64,000 nucleotides of DNA from Sphyrna mokarran (Eukaryota). The position numbers and the translations under genes were made by a program. The DNA is taken from the NCBI GenBank assembly GCA_024679065.1, contig JAGIQG010000004.1:73222001-73286000 (forward strand), read 5' to 3'. Shown one piece after another: positions 17,798 through 39,990 of the stretch. Positions within the stretch are counted from its first letter, which is position 1. Each line of letters opens with the position of its first letter. The notes under the pieces were generated by a model. That model saw only the letters and a list, made by a program, of their open reading frames with translations, was not told where the DNA came from and did no database searches.

Positions 17798-18217
17798 TCA
17801 TAGAAATCTTACACTGCAGAAGAAGGCCATTCAACCCATCAAGTCTGCACCAATTCTTCGAAAGAGCATCTTACTAATTTCATTGCGGTAACCCCGCACG
17901 TTTACAGTGGCCAATCCCCCTAAACTACATGTCTTGGGACACTAAGAGGCAATTTAGCATGACCAATCCACCATCTAACCTGTACTTCTTTTGGATTGAN
18001 NNNNNNNNNNNNNNNNNNNNNNNNNNNNNNNNNNNNNNNNNNNNNNNNNNNNNNNNNNNNNNNNNNNNNNNNNNNNNNNNNNNNNNNNNNNNNNNNNNNN
18101 NNNNNNNNNNNNNNNNNNNNNNNNNNNNNNNNNNNNNNNNNNNNNNNNNNNNAATCACCCTAGGCCAGATTCGAACATGGATCCCTGGCACTGTGCGGCA
18201 CTGAGTACCATGCTGCC
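17795..18217 (-). mobile_element. HE1-type V-SINE spanning the assembly gap
   Basis: Tail gaagaaggccattcaacccatc left of the gap; head ccctggcactgtgcggcac..ccatgctgccc right of it. Confidence 0.85.
18000..18152. other. Assembly gap (153 N)
   Basis: Run of n. Confidence 1.
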
Positions 18218-29872: not shown

Positions 29873-30384
29873 AGGGCCTGAGATTGCATCCAGTAAAGAG
29901 GGCACCATGGGAGAAGACCCCCTCTCAACAGGGTGCTGAGGTGAGTCAGACAGGACATGAGGGTGCAGGATTGATTGGTGATAATAAGGGGGGGATGGTC
30001 GCCTGCAGGAAGCTATGGGTCATAGGCTGTCCAATTAAGACAGCCATCTTTGCTACCTAACACTGAGCTTCCAGGCAGGCCATTAAAATAGCGACAGCGA
30101 TGGGAAGATGGCCTTAATTGACTTAGTTAGTCTCTAGGCAGGAAGGCCATTTTCTTCAGCACTGGTAAAATGCATGGCGATGGGAAGATGGCATTCCACA
30201 TTCCCTGCCTTCCCTTTTCATTTTGTGTGTCTCCTCTTAGTAGGTTTTCTAACCACAGAGGGATCACAGCTGTTTTCAATCCTAACCTCACCTGACTGTA
30301 CCACATACATTTTTAATGGATAACTGGTAATAAGGATCAGGAACTTGGACTGATTTTCCCTAACTCAGTGACACAGAGCAGAGC

Positions 30385-31232
30385 ATAGAACATTATAGCG
30401 CAGTACATGCCTTTCAGCCCTCAATGTTGCACCGACCCGTGAAACCAATCTAAAGCCCATCTAATCTACACTATTCCAATATCATCCATATGTTTATCAA
30501 TGACCATTTAAATGCCCTTAATGTGTTGGCAAATCCATTATTGTTGCAGGCAAGGCAACCATGCTCTTACTACTCTCTGAATAAAGAACAACATCTGACA
30601 TCTATCCTACGTCAATCACCCTCGTGCTAGCCATCACCATCTGAGGAAAATGGTTCTCATTGTCCACCCTATTTCATCCTCTGATCATCATATATGCCTC
30701 TATTAAGTTGCCTCTTAACCTTCTTCTCTCTAATAAAAACAGCCTCATGTCCTTTGGCCTTTCCTCATAAGACCTTCGCACCACACCAGAAAACATCCTG
30801 TTAAATCTCCTCTGCACCTTTCCAATGTATCCACATCCTTCCTATAATGCAGCGACCAGGACTGTACACAATACTTCAAATGCAGCTGCATCAGAGTTTT
30901 GTACAGTTGCAACATGACCTCATGGGTCCTAAACTCAATCCCTCTACCAATAAAAACTAACACACTGTACTCCTCCTTAACAAACCTATCAACTTTCAGG
31001 GATATATGCACACAGACATCGAGATCTCTCTGCTCAACCACACTGCCAAGTAACTTACCATTCGTCTAGTAATCTGTATTTCCTGTTAATCCTTGCAAAG
31101 TGAATCACTTCACACTTTTCTGCATTAAACTCCATTTGCCACCTCTCAGCCCAGCTCTGCAGCTTATCTATGTCCCTCTGTAACCTGTAATATCCTTCCA
31201 CACTGTCCACAACTCCACCAACTTTAGTGTCA
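30385..31232 (-). mobile_element. CR1/HER1 LINE 3' fragment
   Basis: DTKVGGVVDS..LQRDIDKLQSWAERWQMEFNAEKC; EQRDL..GRGIEFR..YCVQ. Confidence 0.92.
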
Positions 31233-31382
31233 AATCCATGCAAACCTTGATAACCTATTTTTGCCTTGCCTGAGATCAGCTTACTGAATGCATACTGAGA
31301 TTTTTCTGGTTTGTATGCCTTAGCTAATCACCACTTTAAGCAGGTAAATCATTCAATCACTGAATTTATTAAAAATCCCTTT

Positions 31383-32338
31383 TCTTACAATCAGGTGAGG
31401 AAGGGTCGAATGGCTCTCCTCTATTCCCTCTCCTTATTTGACCGCAACAAGTTTTTTAAAAAAATGGAAAACTTGCTAATTCCATGAATGTTTAATTCTT
31501 TAGCTGCTTTGAAAATAAAACACATGATTAGACATGTTTCTTGAGTTTTTACATGTGCTTAACCAGTCTAAGGAAAATATAAAAAATTCACACACACTGG
31601 GAAGGATAGGTTAAGTAATTTGAAATTTATTAAAATTAAAAGGATACAGCTTTTCAAGGTTGGCTTCAGGCTGCTTTCACTCAGCGGTCCTGTTGCTTTT
31701 AACATTAGGCGGTTTTATGCTGTAGACAAAGAAATTAACTATTCTTCAGGAGTCAGGGCCGCTTTCTTATTAAAATCTCTGTTGGTAGCACCTACACAGT
31801 CAAAATCACCAGGCAGATCTAAAAATTTGCAAGTTGGATGGAGGTGGGGATGGAGATAGAAATAAGGTATCCGCTTAGGATTCTGTTCCTTCAGTGTCTC
31901 AGTAGTTTGTTTTGTTCCATTCTGAATCAAAAACAAATGCTTAAAAACACAAAGTGGATATGGGAGAGGAAGTGATGTGGGGGGTGGTTCTGATATGAGG
32001 GAGATAAGTGAAACATTAACGTGGAGGGCAGGTGTAAAGTCAACATTGGGAGCAGGGAGGCTGAAAGCTTCATTGTGAGATCTGGGGAGAGCACTATGGC
32101 AGCTCAATTTGAATATATTAATAAATGGTCCCACCTCTTCATGGCAGGACACTCGGATATCTCATTACTTCTGCCATTAAAAAGATTTTATGCGAGCAGC
32201 ATTTCAACGATATATTCCACATGTTTAAATCTTTAACTACACCTTGCTGACCTCCCAATAATCCTGGGATATGAGCCTGAAAATGAAGGGTTTGAAATTC
32301 ATACAGCTCTGTCTTCCAACTCTGAATCCATGTCGACA
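31383..32338. mobile_element. Solo LTR-like repeat (~950 bp)
   Basis: tcttacaatcaggtgagg..tttgaccgcaacaag start, ...tgtcgaca end; no TSD seen. Confidence 0.4.
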
Positions 32339-33092
32339 AGCAGTAGGCTAATGGATGGTGGGAGCTCATTAAATTTTCCTGCAGCACAGGACTAAGCACC
32401 CTATCAATTAGTACAAAGGTCGTTGCCGCCAATAAATGAGCATTTCTAGATGCTTTGATTCACTATTTATCCTGTCAGACAGCGAATCGGCCAGCAAACC
32501 CTTCCATGACTTTGCTCTGTTCTTTAAAGGAAATGTGTGAGGATATAAAAACACAAACTCATCATCTGAAAGAACGCTTTGAAAATTTACATGAAGGAAG
32601 CCCCTCGTTAAATCTTTGCTAATTTTTGTAATGCGCATCTTGTTTCAAGTTTGGAATCTGGAATCATTTAAGCAGCTGTTTCTTCAATCAGCAATCAATC
32701 GCTAAGATCAGAAGACAAAAGGTTGAGAGGTTCATTATAGATGTGGGAAGGATAAATGCACAAGCTTCATGATTTTGAAACATTTCATCAAGGTACGCCA
32801 GATTTGAATCAAAAGGAGACATTTCAAACATAGGTAACAAAACCTCTCTGCCTACTTCAAAAACCTCATTATGAACATGCTAAAGGTGGCAAAAAGAAGA
32901 ATCTGAGTTTGCTGCTCTTAATGAATCAGCAATACATTTACACTTCAAAGATTCTTTGCACAGGAGCAAATCCTCTTTCGTTATGGTCTCTCCTCTACGT
33001 TTCTTTACAGTAGTTGAAATCAAGTTTCAAAAATGAATTTGTACGTGGCTCAATTTCCACATATTTTAAACATGGAACTTAAATGTAAAATG

Positions 33093-33895
33093 TGCTTTCA
33101 AATAGCCAAGCAATCTCAAACAGACCATTGTTCACAGCAAACTACCCAGCCTTCAGGAGAACAGCGATCATGATACCACACAACCCTGCCACAGCAACTT
33201 TTACAAGATGTGCCGGATCATCGACATGGATACCAGCATCAAGCACCGTCTACTAGGTACATAGTGCATACTCATGCGACTCGGCCAACGTTGTCCACCT
33301 TCAAAGATGTGGAACATCAGTGAGACCATGCAGACGCCACAGCAACGGATTAGCAGACACTGTGCGACAGTTGCCAGGTAGGAGTGTTCCCTTTTAATTG
33401 GGGAGCACTTCGACAGTCAAGAGCATTCAGCCTCTGATATTCAGGTAAGCATTCTCCAAGACAGCCTTCAAGCCACACGGCAATGCAGAATCACCAAGCA
33501 GAAATTAATAGCCAAGTTCCACAACCATGAAAACGGCCTCAAACAGGATCTTGGTTTCATGTCACACTACAAGTAACCCCTACCATTTCACCTGAGTTTG
33601 CAAAATCTTTCTAATTGTCCTGGCTGGAGACAATTCACACCTCGAATCTGTGATAATCCCTTTCTCTACTAGCACTATCTGTACCTGTAAAGATCTGATT
33701 ACCTGTAAAGATTCACATTCCAACCATTATCTTGCAATGTGTCTTGGTTTATATATGCCGTGTTTGTGAAACATATCTCTCCATTCTTCTGATAAAGGAG
33801 CAGCACTCTGAAAGCTCGTGACTGCAAATAAACCTGTTGGACTTTAATCTATGTTGTGAGACTTCTTATTGTGACCACCCAATCCAACGTTGATA
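33093..33895 (+). mobile_element. Penelope-like element 3' part: GIY-YIG endonuclease relic and pseudo-LTR
   Basis: NLKQTIVHSKLPS..QPCHS..CRII..YSCDSANVV..ISETMQ..GEHF..KLIAKF..NGLKQDLGFMSHYK* (TAA 33574-33576); decayed hammerhead ctgataa..gaaagctc at 33789-33817. Confidence 0.9.
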
Positions 33896-33969
33896 TTTAA
33901 GATCAAGCACAGTAGCTTGGTTGAAGATTTTAGATTACATTTCAGCTTCATTTGAAGCAATTTTTAAAA

Positions 33970-34178
33970 GCCGCATCTTGACCTTTTGGCTAAGATGCAA
34001 ATGAAGTCAAACCTTGGAGGAGGAGTTTTGCCTACTCCAATCAGCTTGGATCATGTCAATCAAGCCTAAGACAGGAGATGAGAGCCCCATCTTGTCAGCT
34101 TGGATCAGGAATGTCTCAACTTGTTGAAACTCTGAATTGGACTTGATTAAATTGAATTGGAATGTAAACAAAAAAAAA
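33970..34178 (+). mobile_element. U2 snRNA-derived retroposed element (SINEU-like or U2-variant retrocopy)
   Basis: gccgcatcttgaccttttggctaagatgcaa vs U2 ATCGCTTCTCGGCCTTTTGGCTAAGATCAA; tcttgtcagcttggatcaggaatgtc vs U2 TCTTATCAGTTTAATATCTGATACGTC; A-rich tail; 5' flank ttttt/aaaa. Confidence 0.7.
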
Positions 34179-35000
34179 CTACTGGCTTGAAATTAGTGGT
34201 CACAGTACTATCACAAAAAAGCTATCTCACAATTATTTATTTTTAAAGATTTCAATTCATTTGGTTTAGTGTCAGAAAAACAGAATTTGCACATCCATGC
34301 CCATTCACCTCCTATGCATTCTGTACATAACAATATAGCTCTATAAAGTTTTGTAAGCAAGATCATTCAAAGTCATTCATTCATAACTTCCTCCATTCTT
34401 GAAAATAAACTGCTCTTACTCCACCCCTATAAAAGTGTCAGTCATCCAAAGCACTGAAAGTAAGAACAGCTTAAACTGCAAGTATTTGATAGCTAATTAT
34501 TTTGTGTAAATAAATAATGGACAAGAGAAAGAGATGTCAATCAAGCATGCCTTCCCTTGGGTGCAGATGTCTGACCCGGCTAATGTATGTCTAGCCTTGG
34601 AGAGGGAAGTGTGTGGAGGATGAGACGGTCTGAGGGGTAAGGGCTAGCAGGCTGTTTATTTATTTCAACGTAACCAGGACAAGGTCCCAGAACAGCAAGG
34701 TAGGCCCTTTTAAACAGTCCACCTCAGCACCTAGCAACAACTCTTTCTAATTCTTTCCAGGTCCAAATCCAGTCAGCTTCTATTAAAAAGCATAAATCCC
34801 ACATTTTCAGGCACTTTCTTCCAAGACACATACACTAATGGGGAAATTTCCTGATTCTGGCTAATCACCTCTAGGATGAAAATCCAATCCACAGTATCAC
34901 AAAATAGATTTGTTAAATGCCCTCTGCATATCCAAATACAGAAGATCATCTGCATTAACATTAGCGACTCTTTCCATTTTTTTATTTAAGAGCTCAAAAA

Positions 35001-35356
35001 GGGAGACAGTGGCATAGTGCTATTGTCACTGCAGTAGGGACCCAGGGTAATGATCTAGGGGCTTGGGATCAAATCCCACCATCGTAGAATGTGAAATCTG
35101 AATTCAATAAATATTTGTAATTGAAAGTCTTTGTGGTCAATTATTGTAAAAACCCATCTGGTTCACTAATGTCTTTTAGGGAAGGAAATCTGCCATCCCT
35201 ATCTGATCTGGCCTACATGTGAGTCCAAGTCCCCAGCAATGTGACTGATCTCTAAATGCCCTCTGAAAATGGTCTAGCTCTGTTCAAGGGAAATTAGGGA
35301 TGGCCAATAAATGCTGGCTCAGCCAGCAACACCCAAATCTCATGAGTGAATTAAAA
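35001..35356 (+). mobile_element. tRNA-derived SINE sharing its 3' tail with the 13200/14965 LINE family
   Basis: A-box tggcatagtg, B-box-like ggatcaaatcc; tail aattagggatggccaataaatgctggctcagccagcaacacccaaatc. Confidence 0.8.
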
Positions 35357-35379
35357 GTAACAAGTTAGTAAAACATAAT

Positions 35380-35845
35380 TTACAAGAATTGTTCCAGGAA
35401 TGAGAAACTTCAGTGGATAGTTTGGAGGGGTTTGGACTGTTGTTTTTAGAGAGAAGGCAGCTAAGAGGAGATTTGATAAAGATGTTAAATATAATGAGTA
35501 GAGTGGAAGATTAAATAGGGAGAAACTGTACCTGCTTATAAAATGATCAAGAATGAGACAGGACAGATTTGAAATGATTGGCAAAAGAAGCAAATGTGAG
35601 AACAAACATTTTCACACAGCCAGTGATTTGGGTCTAGAATGCACTACCTGGAAGAGTGCTGGAAGCAGGTTCAATCGATACATTCAAGAGGACATCAGAT
35701 AATTATTTGAACTGAAACAATGTACAGGGGTGCAGAAAAAGCCAGAAAGAATGCACTAAACCATAATGCTAATTTGGAGAGCTGGTGCAGATACGATAGG
35801 CTAAATTGCATCCTTCTGCACTGCAACAATACTGTAATACTATGA
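35380..35845 (+). mobile_element. CR1 3' end
   Basis: FTRIVPGMRN..LEKAAKRRF-like sequence; tail ccttctgcactg. Confidence 0.75.
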
Positions 35846-36907
35846 TCTTGCCTTTAACAACTCTATGCTGTCTTTATTATTCCATATTGTTTCAAACGAT
35901 CAGTTAATTTTGTCCCAGGTTGCAGCCTGTAAAAATTTCCTCACTTCTATTTGTAATTGCCCGGTTAATCTTTCTCCCCCTTTTCAAACTGGACTGCAAC
36001 ATTTGCAAACATCTGATGTCATCATACATTGAAGGAGAATTTGAAGATCACCGTCAGAACCTCTGGAATTTCTATCCTTACTTTGCTCCATAAACTCAAT
36101 TGCGCCCCAAGCAGACCAGGTAGACTTTCTGTCTTAACGGCTACAAACCTTTTAAGAGCATCCTTTTAATTTATTTTTACCCAATCCAGTATCACTACAA
36201 CCACGTTTTATGCAACTATATTTATAGCATCTTCTCTTGGGAAGAGAGACGTAAAATACTAATTTTGCACCCCTGCCATGATGTCTACCTCCAAAAGAAT
36301 ATTTTCATTTAGGTCTTGAATCGATACACACTTCTTTTCACTATCAGTGCCTTCATAAAATAATTTTGAGTTTCTATTCATGTTAGCCACTAACCTATTC
36401 ATGTACCTCTTTTATTTCCTTTTAAAGATCTCCTCTGCACTTTCTATTTTCAGCTTGGTTCCTGCATTTGTCATAGGTATCCTTTCTCTGTCACATTTTA
36501 GTTTCAAAGAAGTTTTAAGATTCCTAAATCCATTCAGATTACCTCATTGCTGAAAATCTAGTCAGCATCCTGGAATTTTTTTGCTGAAGAGTTCACATGA
36601 CTGACTGAACTAAATCAAGCAATGAAAACTATGCTGAATCACTTTATTAGAACAAAGTAGAAGAGTGCACTTGCATATTGATTGAGACGCTTGACATCAA
36701 TAACACAAATTGGCTATCTCCCGTTCTTGAGTAAAATTAAGAAGGTCACAATGATTAGTTGGTTTTCTCAAGTTTGACTCACAATCATTTAATTCATGAC
36801 TGTGCATTTCCTTCTATTTGCTGTATGTCTATATACCAGTGACCAGGCTATAATGGTAATGTGTGCATTATTTGAGAAGTAGGTACCTGAATTTATTACA
36901 ACACGTT

Positions 36908-37222
36908 CATAGAATCATAGAACGTTAAAATACAGAAGGAAACTATCCAGCCCGTAGTACCAGTTCACAAAACACCAGCTCATGAAAGGACCACCGAATT
37001 ATTCTCCTGCTCTTCAACCAAAGTCTTGCAAATTTTTCAACTACTTACCCATACTGCTTTGAGTTCTAATTGAACTTGCTTTCATCATCCATCCTATCAA
37101 GCAGCACATTCCAGATCATAATAATTTGCCTTTCATCTCATCTCTGCTTTGTTTTAACCAATCATCTTAAATCTCTGTCTCTGGTCCTCAACCTTTCAGC
37201 CAGCGCAAACAGTTTCTCCTTC
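36908..37222 (-). mobile_element. CR1 3' tail fragment
   Basis: catagaatcatagaa..acagaaggaaactatccagcccg start; antisense WNVLLD-like sequence. Confidence 0.65.
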
Positions 37223-37773
37223 CTGTCAGGACTGTAACATCCTAAGGATACAAAGCATTGTGTCAATTCATTATAACATGAGTTGATGAGGGGTAGATCC
37301 TTCTTAACAATTGCAGGGAAACAAGACATACTGTGAAGAACTGGAGAAATTATGATTTACAATGCAGTTTCATTAATGTTGATTTGATACTTTCTTTGTC
37401 TGGGAAATGACATTTATCATTGAATAGGGACATAGTATTCATGTCATCTCTTCCAGATATATGCTTTAAAATGCCTGAAAGGATGTCAGATAAAGGGGCA
37501 AGCAAAATAATTTTACTTGCAACAATCAGACATTTTTTCACTATGTAAAACTATTCTCAAGTGCTGCTGCAATTTTGGACTTTACATATTGAATGCTTTC
37601 TTTTTGAAAGGAATACTGCTATATATATTGAATTATGTTAAACCTAGCCAATCTCCAATAGGTTTATAGGTTTGAGGTAACAGGTTTGAAATGTAATTAT
37701 GATGTTCAGTCTCATTCCAAATCAGGAAACAGTCACAGTATGTACTGTCACAGTTGGGAGATTAGGAAACAAG

Positions 37774-37910
37774 GGGCAAAATTTTACGACTTGTCACAGC
37801 GGGAACAGAGTGGGTTGGGGCTAGAAAACGTGGCAAATTTTTCAAAAACTCCATTGACTTTGGCAGGACCAGAAGATCCTACCAGTGGGAAAAGCCATAA
37901 TATTCCATCC
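37774..37910. mobile_element. Short MITE (Harbinger-type)
   Basis: gggcaaaattttac start; internal ccattgactttggcagg shared in antisense with 46535 and 52829; right TIR degraded. Confidence 0.5.
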
Positions 37911-37997
37911 AGAGAAGGGGGAGCAGGAGGATGAATGACTGCAGGATTCCAGGGCCCAGTGCACACTGAGGGGGAGAGTCCAACAGACGGTGTGAAA

Positions 37998-39990
37998 TAA
38001 AAGCAGGTCAGATCACATCAGGTCACATCTGCAGAAAGAGTTAATGTTTAGGTCAATGACCTTTCATCGGAACTGAGGAAAATAGAAATGTATTAGGTTT
38101 AAGCAAATGAAAGGGGAGAGATCAGGAAGAACAAAAGGAAAGGTCGATAATAGACTGGAAAGCAGGAGAGATTAAATGACAAAAGATTTTATGCTACAAC
38201 AAACACAATGATTCATAATGGATAAAGCAAACATACGATGTGAATGGTTGGATAACAGCTACCCAAATGAAAATGTAAGGAATAACAAAAGAATAAAAAA
38301 TGAATCAGAAAAACAGAACATGAAATGAAGTGAGGAGAAAGATTATGATCTAAAATAGTTGAATCAATGTTGAGTCAAGAAGGTTGTTGAGTCCTGAGCC
38401 AAATAATGAGCTGTTCCTCAACTTAGTGTGGAATTTCATTAGAACACTGCAGCAAGTCAAGGACAGAAAGATCAGAATGGGGACAAGATGGAGGATTGAA
38501 ATGATAAGTGACAGGCAGCTCAAGCTCATGCTTGTGGACTGAATGGTTTTTCCGCAAAGTGGTCACCCAGTCTGTGTATGCTGTCTGTTAGACAGGATTC
38601 AAAATACTGGGACTAAAACACTAATAAAGACTATTAAAACAGAGTGGATTAATTTCAGATCAGAATCACAGACTGCCTTATAAGTATATTTTACAGAGGT
38701 ACTGTTTATGTAGGAACACATATAATCATAGTTATTTAAACATGTATTTCTGAAAGTGTGTTATTGAAAAACCATACATCTTGGTTAATGATTCAGAGTT
38801 CTAAGGCATCATGGAAAGTAGTCAAGTAAAGTGAACTATATTCTTTATAATAATACACTCACAGAAACATAGCTCTTGTCAGCATGTGTTCCAGACTATT
38901 CTCAGGAGTGGAATATTCAGTCAAGAACAAAGCTAGTGATTCCAGACAGCTTAACGAATAGACAAAGCATTACGTCAGACAAGAGAAGCAAGCAACACTG
39001 GCTATGGGAAAGACAGTCAGAAATCACTTACAACCACTGTTCCCATGCTGTCAGAAGATAAATGTAACTGCCGATGTATATGGCATCTGCTAATAATGAT
39101 TCACCTAATGATGACTGGTTCATGTCTGGCTGGGATCTGCCAGGGGGTGGGGAAAATTACTTTTGGAAATTGTATAATTATATTGCCAATGTGTTGAAGT
39201 TCAGAGACATGTCGGAATGCTCAGTACTTTCCTCCCAGTGTACGTTGGTCAATAAAGAATGTCTGTCATCAGGATACTGTCGTCACGAGTCTGTGTGTTA
39301 GTCAAAGTTCAGCTCAATACTTAGTCTCTGGAAAAAGATCTCCAATAGGATTGGTGCTGTGTAGGAGAGTGACTCACCAGATCCCAACAGCAAGGTACAT
39401 CTCCAAGATGGATGAGTGTATTTCTTCATTTACCACCCAGTAGATAGAGGAGTTATGTGGCAGGCTGCTGGAACCGTAAGCTGAGCGATCTGGACACTGG
39501 GGAGAACACCCTATTCTTAGTCCCATAGTTTCCCCAGTGTACCTCATTATGAACAGCAAATAAAGTATACTAAATGGAAACAAATACAGTAAATTGCTGT
39601 TTCACTTGGAAGGAATGTTTGGAGCCTTGGATAGTGAGATGAGATTAAAGGACAGGTTTTGCAACCATTGGACTTGCATAGACAAGCTCTAGGATGAACG
39701 AAAGTCTTTTGATGGTGAGTGAGGAGTGGATCAAGGTGTCACAGAGGGAACAGTCCCAATCTGACTTTTCCATCCTTGGTGTGTTTCAATGAAATTCAGT
39801 ACTAGCTCGAAGAAAAGCATCTCACCTTTTGACGTGGTTATGGCTTTCACACCATAAAGCCTTTTGCCATTTAATCTGTCTTTTCTTTCACCCTATCACA
39901 GACCTTCCCCTTGTGTTTTTCTGCCCTTCTTTCAGCTGTTCAAAACTTATTACATTCATATTTTTCATCAATTCTGCAACATTAAACCGT
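37998..39990 (-). mobile_element. Penelope-like element (second family) with GIY-YIG relic and inverted terminal copy
   Basis: Minus: SLCDTLIHS..CKTCP..IQGSKHSFQVKQQFT..YTGET | HRLGDHFA..LPVTYHFN..EEQLI; 38075-38190 is an inverted copy of 39850-39965. Confidence 0.8.
38586..39527 (+). mobile_element. LTR-like insertion (~940 bp) splitting the PLE endonuclease
   Basis: Starts TGTTAG; AATAAA near 39251; lies exactly between the GET and RLGD motifs; TSD not clean. Confidence 0.5.

Follow-up and report, generated by a model that had tools for sequence, protein, structure and literature searches.

A U2 snRNA-headed, A-tailed retroposon family in the shark Sphyrna mokarran and its link to the Keno site of U2 genes

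Short retroposons headed by the 5′ end of a small nuclear RNA are known from crocodilians, and Kojima 2015 (PMC4494074) reports in its text that none was found outside that group. SINEU-1 is described there as shorter than 500 nt and A-tailed, with a head taken from U2, another U2-like segment inside, internal T-runs, recurrent 5′ snRNA additions, tandem insertions and, in some copies, target site duplications (TSDs) of ~10-17 nt; its partner belongs to the Tx1 group, bears snRNA heads itself and shares no 3′ end with it (PMC4494074). These traits are paralleled in the shark family reported here, in which the partner is a probable one. The transcription of SINEU was named in the same text as an open question, and a puzzling one because snRNA promoters lie outside the RNA (PMC4494074). 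No snRNA-headed SINE of a shark or of another non-crocodilian was found in the literature searched, a scope outside which most subscription journals, Repbase and Dfam lay, nor is one mentioned in PMC5786205, PMC5381603 or PMC5499810, as far as the available passages go.

Two further systems insert into U2 genes themselves, namely Keno and Utopia, after both of which U2 is stated to resume at nt 39 (PMC4640811). Keno, as far as it is described in PMC6136364, PMC4640811 and PMC4494074, resembles the shark element in its U2 insertion site, its 3′ flank and its A-tail, but it is an autonomous two-ORF LINE, whereas the element is 314 nt long, non-coding and carries a U2 5′ fragment to dispersed sites. 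Utopia likewise shares the U2 site with downstream U2 from nt 39, but is credited in the text of PMC4640811 with a restriction-like endonuclease and, in reptiles, a 20-bp TSD, whereas the partner LINE found here appears to be of APE type. The Keno-like sequence of this genome is a co-resident LINE and not the element itself.

A third comparison is offered by R2, whose RNA carries 5′ sequence derived from the target and is cut from the co-transcript by a ribozyme. Co-transcription of R2 in 28S rDNA is cited in PMC4494074. R2 and its non-autonomous derivatives use the promoter of the target gene, as is proposed below for the element; they differ in their release by a ribozyme, whereas here the target's own start site would set the 5′ end, and in that most element copies end up outside the target.

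The shark family displays the parts by which SINEU is structurally defined, that is a U2 head, a repeated unit, short length, an A-tail, and TSDs or truncation. It differs in its target, which is a Mariner transposon for SINEU (according to PMC4494074) and the Keno site of U2 here, promoter-linked relics included, and in its antisense arm, since none is described for SINEU-1 in the text of PMC4494074. Its origin may have been independent of crocodilian SINEU-1, -2 and -3, the likeness being drawn on structure.

The window copy and its family

The window analyzed is a stretch of 64,000 nt from Sphyrna mokarran (contig JAGIQG010000004.1, positions 73,222,001 to 73,286,000 of the forward strand). 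A DNA search of the same genome (2.77 Gb) with window positions 33960-34185 as the query returned 2,096 candidates; the 40 of these that were scored matched nearly the whole query, with a non-self identity of 85-91%. An exact 17-mer across the head-body junction was matched 303 times genome-wide and an exact 19-mer of the body 1,109 times, with 0 matches for the reversed-pattern control of either. On contig C1, 6 of 23 junction matches also carry the body 19-mer, and from this overlap about 4,000-4,250 copies were extrapolated, a rough figure and probably a low one because older subfamilies mostly escape both exact patterns. The copy counts and the shared exact junctions bear out the expectation of the preliminary description that this is a multicopy, U2-headed and SINEU-like family instead of a one-off retrocopy. 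The existence of the family is certain, and we have hardly any doubt that it is a U2-headed retroposon family. A CR1 frame from the same genome is 63-70% identical to named elasmobranch proteins and 41-55% to those of birds and turtles, which indirectly favors a shark or ray as host; two high matches bear bacterial names and probably stem from contaminating contigs.

The extent of the element was defined by aligning 30 copies fetched from the genome. All 30 share sequence upstream of position 33970, where the element had been thought to start, so that it extends ~100 nt further upstream and the window copy begins at 33898 (Table 1). The U2 match first noticed near 33970 is genuine, with an exact 15-mer of U2 nt 13-27 at 33982-33996 and 83% identity to U2 3-37 over 33972-34007, but it represents an internal second hairpin and not the element head. 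The adjoining TTTTT/AAAA run, previously read as an L1-type site, recurs, unchanged or nearly so, in each of the 30 aligned copies and is therefore element-internal, not an L1 nick site. The proposed resemblance of 34090-34116 to U2 stem IIa also fell away, as no significant U2 match was obtained there and 13% of shuffles score equally high. By contrast, the reported lack of an Sm site and of stems III/IV was correct, the Sm site and stems II-IV being absent from the unit; the reported lack of GTAGTA holds for the damaged window copy only, and the head of the family has it. The terminal A-run was likewise correctly seen, apart from position 34169, which is a C.

Table 1. Parts of the U2-headed retroposon copy in the window
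Feature	Position	Strand	Remark
Whole U2-headed retroposon copy, subfamily A	33898..34178	+	255 of 281 bases equal the family majority
Remnant of the true U2 head	33898..33914	+	U2 nt 22-31 exact (33898-33907), nt 32-38 decayed
Antisense-arm remnant, consensus nt 51-74	33915..33938	+	predicted pairing with the U2 head in full-length copies
Short hairpin	33945..33958	+	identical across subfamilies A, B and C
T5A4 run, element-internal, no insertion site	33961..33969	+	from the alignment of copies
Second, internal U2 stem-I-like hairpin	33973..33998	+	U2 nt ~7-27, closing stem extended
Element body	33999..34160	+	predicted hairpin series; includes 34090-34116; resembles neither U2 nor the UTRs of the partner LINE
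AATAAA signal position of subfamily A	34161..34166	+	mutated in the window copy
A-tail, 9 A	34170..34178	+	no TSD visible

The window copy is 5′-truncated, beginning at consensus nt 22 (U2 nt 22), has lost 12 nt internally, and its branch-point recognition hexamer is destroyed. Rfam gave no U2 match at E<=10 within window positions 30000-38000, and Pfam gave no match of any kind at curated cut-offs for 13 ORFs of the window. An ordinary U2 pseudogene was rejected as an identification on the missing U2 match in 30000-38000 and on the comparison of the body with sense U2, which was not significant. Directly upstream, at 33093-33870, the copy is adjoined by a decayed multicopy repeat with matches at 64 of 365 other loci; Pfam found nothing in it at curated cut-offs, and we presume that its broken frame resembles a GIY-YIG/Penelope-like element. 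Window positions 18000-18152 are a run of 153 N.

The majority sequence of subfamily A is composed, in order, of U2 nt 1-40, ~65 nt of further sequence, the stem-I-like hairpin, the structured body, AATAAA and the A-tail. Its head is identical to the genome's own U2 at 38 of 38 positions (nt 3-40), and 71 of 122 distinct segments begin at U2 nt 1-7, with 5′ truncation occurring among the others. An A-tail is present in 102 of the 122 segments reaching at least nt 300. TSDs scoring >=9 were recovered for 11 of 71 copies, compared with 2 of 351 mismatched (shuffled) pairs, which leaves 60 of 71 without a TSD at the threshold used; the suggested check for TSDs was thus positive for the family and negative for the window copy. 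No segment of the 122 is more than 96% identical to the consensus, so the family appears to be extinct in this genome.

Three subfamilies, A, B and C, were distinguished, B and C being older than A and C the oldest. A subfamily-B pattern gave 43 matches (control 0), and all 30 that were fetched proved to be family members; B copies are 81-93% identical to their majority sequence and join U2 after nt 37. Among C copies the loop behind the head varies. The tree of near-full-length copies was star-like, with only two small supported groups, and was uninformative.

When a full-length copy was compared with other RNA families, only U2 rose above chance, and one full-length copy exceeds the Rfam U2 cut-off through its head. 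Internal T4-T5 runs lie at nt 15, 76, 97 and 120, and matches resembling A and B boxes are only loose; a classical Pol III SINE was rejected on the U2 identity of the head and on the internal T-runs from nt 15 onward. Words of the full-length copy were met in 20 public runs from 13 studies; no RNA run was among those listed, which speaks neither for nor against expression. Six organisms, one of which may be the source sample, show a share of at least 0.29, more than the 40-nt head alone can supply; three rows with shares <0.2 were left out.

Tandem or inverted pairs of the element were seen at L013, L260, L343, L354, L355 and L357, and at L013 a 17-nt spacer is duplicated on either side of the first copy. 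Separately, the element sequence of L006, L056, L102, L168, L173 and L216 is disrupted or breaks off around nt 48-69, and this part of the antisense arm is possibly an insertion hot spot.

U2 genes, the Keno site and the partner LINE

Four intact U2 genes are clustered on contig C949, all of them free of the element. In U2-embedded copies the 3′ flank is the Keno target sequence as quoted in PMC6136364. A strict pattern of an A-run followed by U2 from nt 39 onward matched a single locus genome-wide, and this locus is the element. A looser pattern (A-run and U2 nt 40-52) matched 13 loci, against 4 matches of its control: five are the element, four are a LINE 3′ end with 23-25 nt of U2, two have upstream sequence of no assigned kind and two are chance matches. 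Among 41 further Rfam U2 loci, three consist of the element with the U2 3′ half, and one (L283) of the LINE 3′ end joined to U2 38-186. The element thus occupies the Keno site (U2 nt ~39) at 8 loci in all, where a rough count expects ~2e-4 by chance; these are 8 among ~4,000 copies, most of which lie elsewhere. Two more copies run into U2 38-48 and then into a second A-run. Overlap at the U2-embedded copies amounts to 2-3 nt at most, with no 20-bp duplication. One of them, L102, continues into a different U2 variant, which means that at least two independent insertions into U2 took place.

A second type of U2 gene, with a 3′ flank of its own, was encountered at L108, L283 and L292, where an A-run precedes it and it is cut at nt 38-40; the Rfam matches include no intact example of this type. 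Three loci (L282, L293 and L304) continue past the end of mature U2 into ~35 nt of gene flank and do not match the promoter. They resemble read-through RNAs, a resemblance that is not decisive: element-free U2 pseudogenes (L046, L284 and L290) also have the 3′ gene flank, so the three loci are possibly targets and not read-through products.

The LINE found at the same U2 site is itself headed by U2 and encodes RT and zf-RVT domains. Its homologs combine APE, RT and zf-RVT, its best PDB match is L1 ORF2p, and a translated fragment together with the homologs suggests that its endonuclease domain is of the APE kind. Target and domain content make it Keno-like, the clade being resolved to the L1/Tx1 group only, and it is apparently a Keno-like family not yet described, whose choice of target is relaxed. 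Its 3′ end has 2,277 candidates in the genome, most copies lying elsewhere than in U2, and 8 of 10 long copies open with a U2 5′ piece, joined at varied points. Variants of the LINE 5′ end at L212-L221 carry U2 up to nt ~35, ~46-52 or ~58 and occur in head-to-tail arrays.

The element lies within ~15 nt downstream of 4 of 30 LINE 3′ ends, and a LINE 3′ end lies directly upstream of 5 of 98 element segments that were sampled without regard to the LINE. At L061 a spacer recurs after the element tail, as with two insertions at one site. When the element body was compared with the 5′ and 3′ UTRs of the LINE, no score exceeded the shuffle maximum, and derivation of the body from a UTR of the partner LINE was rejected on this ground; the pairing of element and LINE therefore rests on the common target and the tandem evidence. 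The LINE 3′ UTR also contains a target-like motif, so that some short U2-like flanks are possibly self-insertions. Mobilization of the element by this LINE family is probable. In the preliminary description, a body matching a Keno or Utopia 3′ end would have spoken against a family of its own. The element does occur at the Keno site, but the 3′ end of the resident Keno-like LINE differs from its body, and the Keno link therefore accounts for the family instead of refuting it.

The same findings bear on the idea that the element arose from an older Keno or Utopia LINE, either by internal deletion or as its 3′ UTR, and is in other words a non-autonomous LINE and not a SINE. It would share its U2 site with both (PMC4640811 and PMC6136364, as far as these describe it), the joining of subfamily B after nt 37 equals the distance quoted for Keno in PMC6136364, and a body that matches neither U2 nor the resident LINE's UTRs could stem from a LINE not found here. 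Against this it counts that neither UTR of the resident U2-headed LINE resembles the element and that no long common upstream sequence is seen in the flanks of the copies inspected, subfamily C included. We regard this origin as improbable.

Antisense arm, fold and editing

Behind the head lies a segment that copies U2 nt ~17-40 in antisense orientation. Subfamily C has this arm as a reverse complement of U2 nt 17-40 that is nearly exact (0 of 1,000 shuffles), whereas an origin of the segment from sense U2 was rejected (p=0.98 and 0.83). In subfamily A, nt 44-74 are predicted to pair with head nt 11-39 and to cover GUAGUA; 25 of 31 positions of the arm can pair (0 of 300 shuffles), whereas plain identity reaches 16 of 31, a value without significance (33 of 300 shuffles). 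On the sense strand the head-arm pairing of subfamily A is worth -27.1 kcal, on the opposite strand -9.9; the predicted duplex of subfamily C is limited to nt 26-35. Against shuffles, the whole fold reaches z -5.2 for A and -6.0 for C. From C through B to A the arm has drifted mainly by A-to-G and C-to-T changes, which preserve G-U pairs. Differences between A and B affect 19 of 92 unpaired and 14 of 166 paired positions, 8 of them pair-breaking, a comparison made on the fold of A with one region gapped, for which a p of 2e-4 is generous. Whether masking is a function under selection we consider an even question; from U2 biology it may be reasoned that masking protects splicing.

The strong predicted structure and the concentration of subfamily differences in unpaired positions (19/92 vs 8/166 pair-breaking) would also be expected if the copies had been retrocopied from a U2-variant snRNA that serves the host cell, and the U2 promoter present at the relic loci described below would suit such a gene. 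Against a host gene, two promoter searches of limited sensitivity found no intact source gene, all copies are at most 96% identical to the consensus, the subfamilies replace one another in succession, the predicted fold buries the functional U2 hexamer, and the unit is without an Sm site and stems II-IV. This origin is the least credible of those weighed here, and extremely improbable.

A further trace of the RNA was found at L303 (G000:C771:54350533-54352650), whose changes comprise 46 A>G versus 6 T>C. Sorted by the 5′ neighbor, A>G affects 11/11 sites after T, 14/20 after A, 9/18 after C and 12/26 after G, which is the same order as the 5′-neighbor preference given for ADAR1 in the text of PMC8038323. 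The copy holds a long G-run, and outside it 38 of 65 A read G. Among the aligned copies such hyper-mutation is confined to this one, the others having <=9 such changes each. L303 is likely an ADAR-edited RNA written back into DNA, which indicates a double-stranded RNA stage including the head. Its head and body are edited while an extra 5′ piece of U2 is not; the head accordingly belonged to the same RNA as the body.

That extra piece recalls another possibility, in which a headless non-autonomous body received its U2 head separately in each copy, when reverse transcription switched templates onto U2 snRNA. Additional U2 5′ pieces, variously joined, do stand upstream of L024, L064, L074, L196 and L303, the U2 heads of the LINE end at varied points, and the loop behind the head is variable in subfamily C. 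This origin conflicts, however, with the one exact 17-nt junction common to 303 copies, with an arm that complements the head in all three subfamilies, and with the joint editing of head and body in L303 that spared the added piece. We find it very improbable as a general account: for A and B it is largely refuted by the fixed junction, while template switching may have had a part in the origin of subfamily C.

Promoter-linked relics and the source of the transcripts

Within the U2 cluster, L117 (C949:17389778) preserves an entire U2 gene unit into which a subfamily-B body has been inserted, with homology to the U2 gene unit both upstream and downstream. A second relic, L168 (C557:766560), is composed of U2 upstream sequence, U2 1-39 and element nt 41-54, followed by a LINE fragment; its junction is A-like and the element is broken at nt 54. 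Their upstream sequences are 80% identical and contain a SINE, which we take to be tRNA-type, inserted at the same spot, so that the two go back to a single U2 gene unit and do not count as independent. In the text of PMC4494074 the proximal sequence element is placed ~60 nt before U2 +1, and both relics retain the stretch at this position; in L117 the SINE insertion sits upstream of it. With 87% identity to the subfamily-B majority, L117 falls in the middle of the range of B copies (81-93%). Near the U2 cluster, L089 has kept only ~37 nt of U2 upstream sequence.

When 70 segments starting at nt <=7 were compared with the 80 nt upstream of U2, only L117 (listed twice) scored high, with 71 against 26 for the next and a median of 14, and among the 30 fetched subfamily-B copies it was again the only one with a U2 promoter. 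The dispersed copies begin near U2 +1 and have no promoter. An intact young source gene was not found in two promoter searches of the genome, whose sensitivity was limited, one of them having missed L117. Promoter-linked copies existed in this genome; that they served as masters is a probable reading, and a copy re-inserted into a U2 gene would look identical to a master. About 1.2 kb downstream of the L168 relic, at G000:C557 ~765,300, lies an exon-like stretch whose letters suggest what is presumably a MutL-type endonuclease motif, and the relic may be located within an intron of the gene holding it.

The relics are also open to the explanation that a SINEU-type family was transcribed from chance upstream promoters or host introns and that its copies in U2 genes are dead ends of the LINE's preference. 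Flanking promoters were proposed in this way for crocodilian SINEU (Kojima 2015, PMC4494074, in the text as available); the promoter-linked loci are decayed and no nearer to the consensus than other copies, and the different U2 variant at L102 shows independent insertion into U2-like targets. Chance promoters would not lead one to expect that 71 of 122 segments pile up at U2 +1 to +7 with no shared upstream extension, nor that two subfamily junction types stand on one paralogous promoter-bearing U2 unit. We consider this explanation unlikely, if less so than the others set aside above.

Judged from the sequences, the mechanism with the best support is transcription from interrupted U2 genes, and it is probably the actual one. 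The reading that we favor, with a similar degree of belief, is that of a retroposon family of U2 nt ~39 whose masters were interrupted U2 genes under the U2 promoter and whose RNA was likely copied by a Keno-like Tx1 LINE. Pol II would start at U2 +1 of the interrupted gene and read through head and body; most of the RNAs would end in poly(A), and some would run into the rest of U2. Proteins of the LINE would reverse-transcribe the element RNA from its A-tail, mostly at relaxed sites. Occasionally an insertion would fall at U2 nt 38/39, where the head would restore the 5′ end of the gene and create a new promoter-linked master. The arm would fold over the head and hide GUAGUA, so that the RNA would avoid acting as a crippled U2, and ADAR would edit the double-stranded element RNA, giving rise to the hyper-edited copy and to the stepwise A-to-G drift of the arm. 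The complete picture of a self-renewing U2-gene parasite, which homes to nt 39, makes promoter-driven masters, masks itself and evolves partly via ADAR edits, is offered tentatively, and we lean slightly against its holding in every part.

The family extends the SINEU class to elasmobranchs and links it to the Keno target site, and with a master inside a U2 gene it offers a concrete and testable answer to the question of SINEU transcription. The antisense arm, which was kept through three subfamilies, may be needed to carry the branch-point reader piece safely, and the hyper-edited L303 would be a genomic record of the RNA stage. Counts of U2 in shark annotations are inflated by such copies. 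If true, the self-renewing U2-gene parasite would be the first case in which a route of transcription has been worked out for snRNA-headed SINEs.
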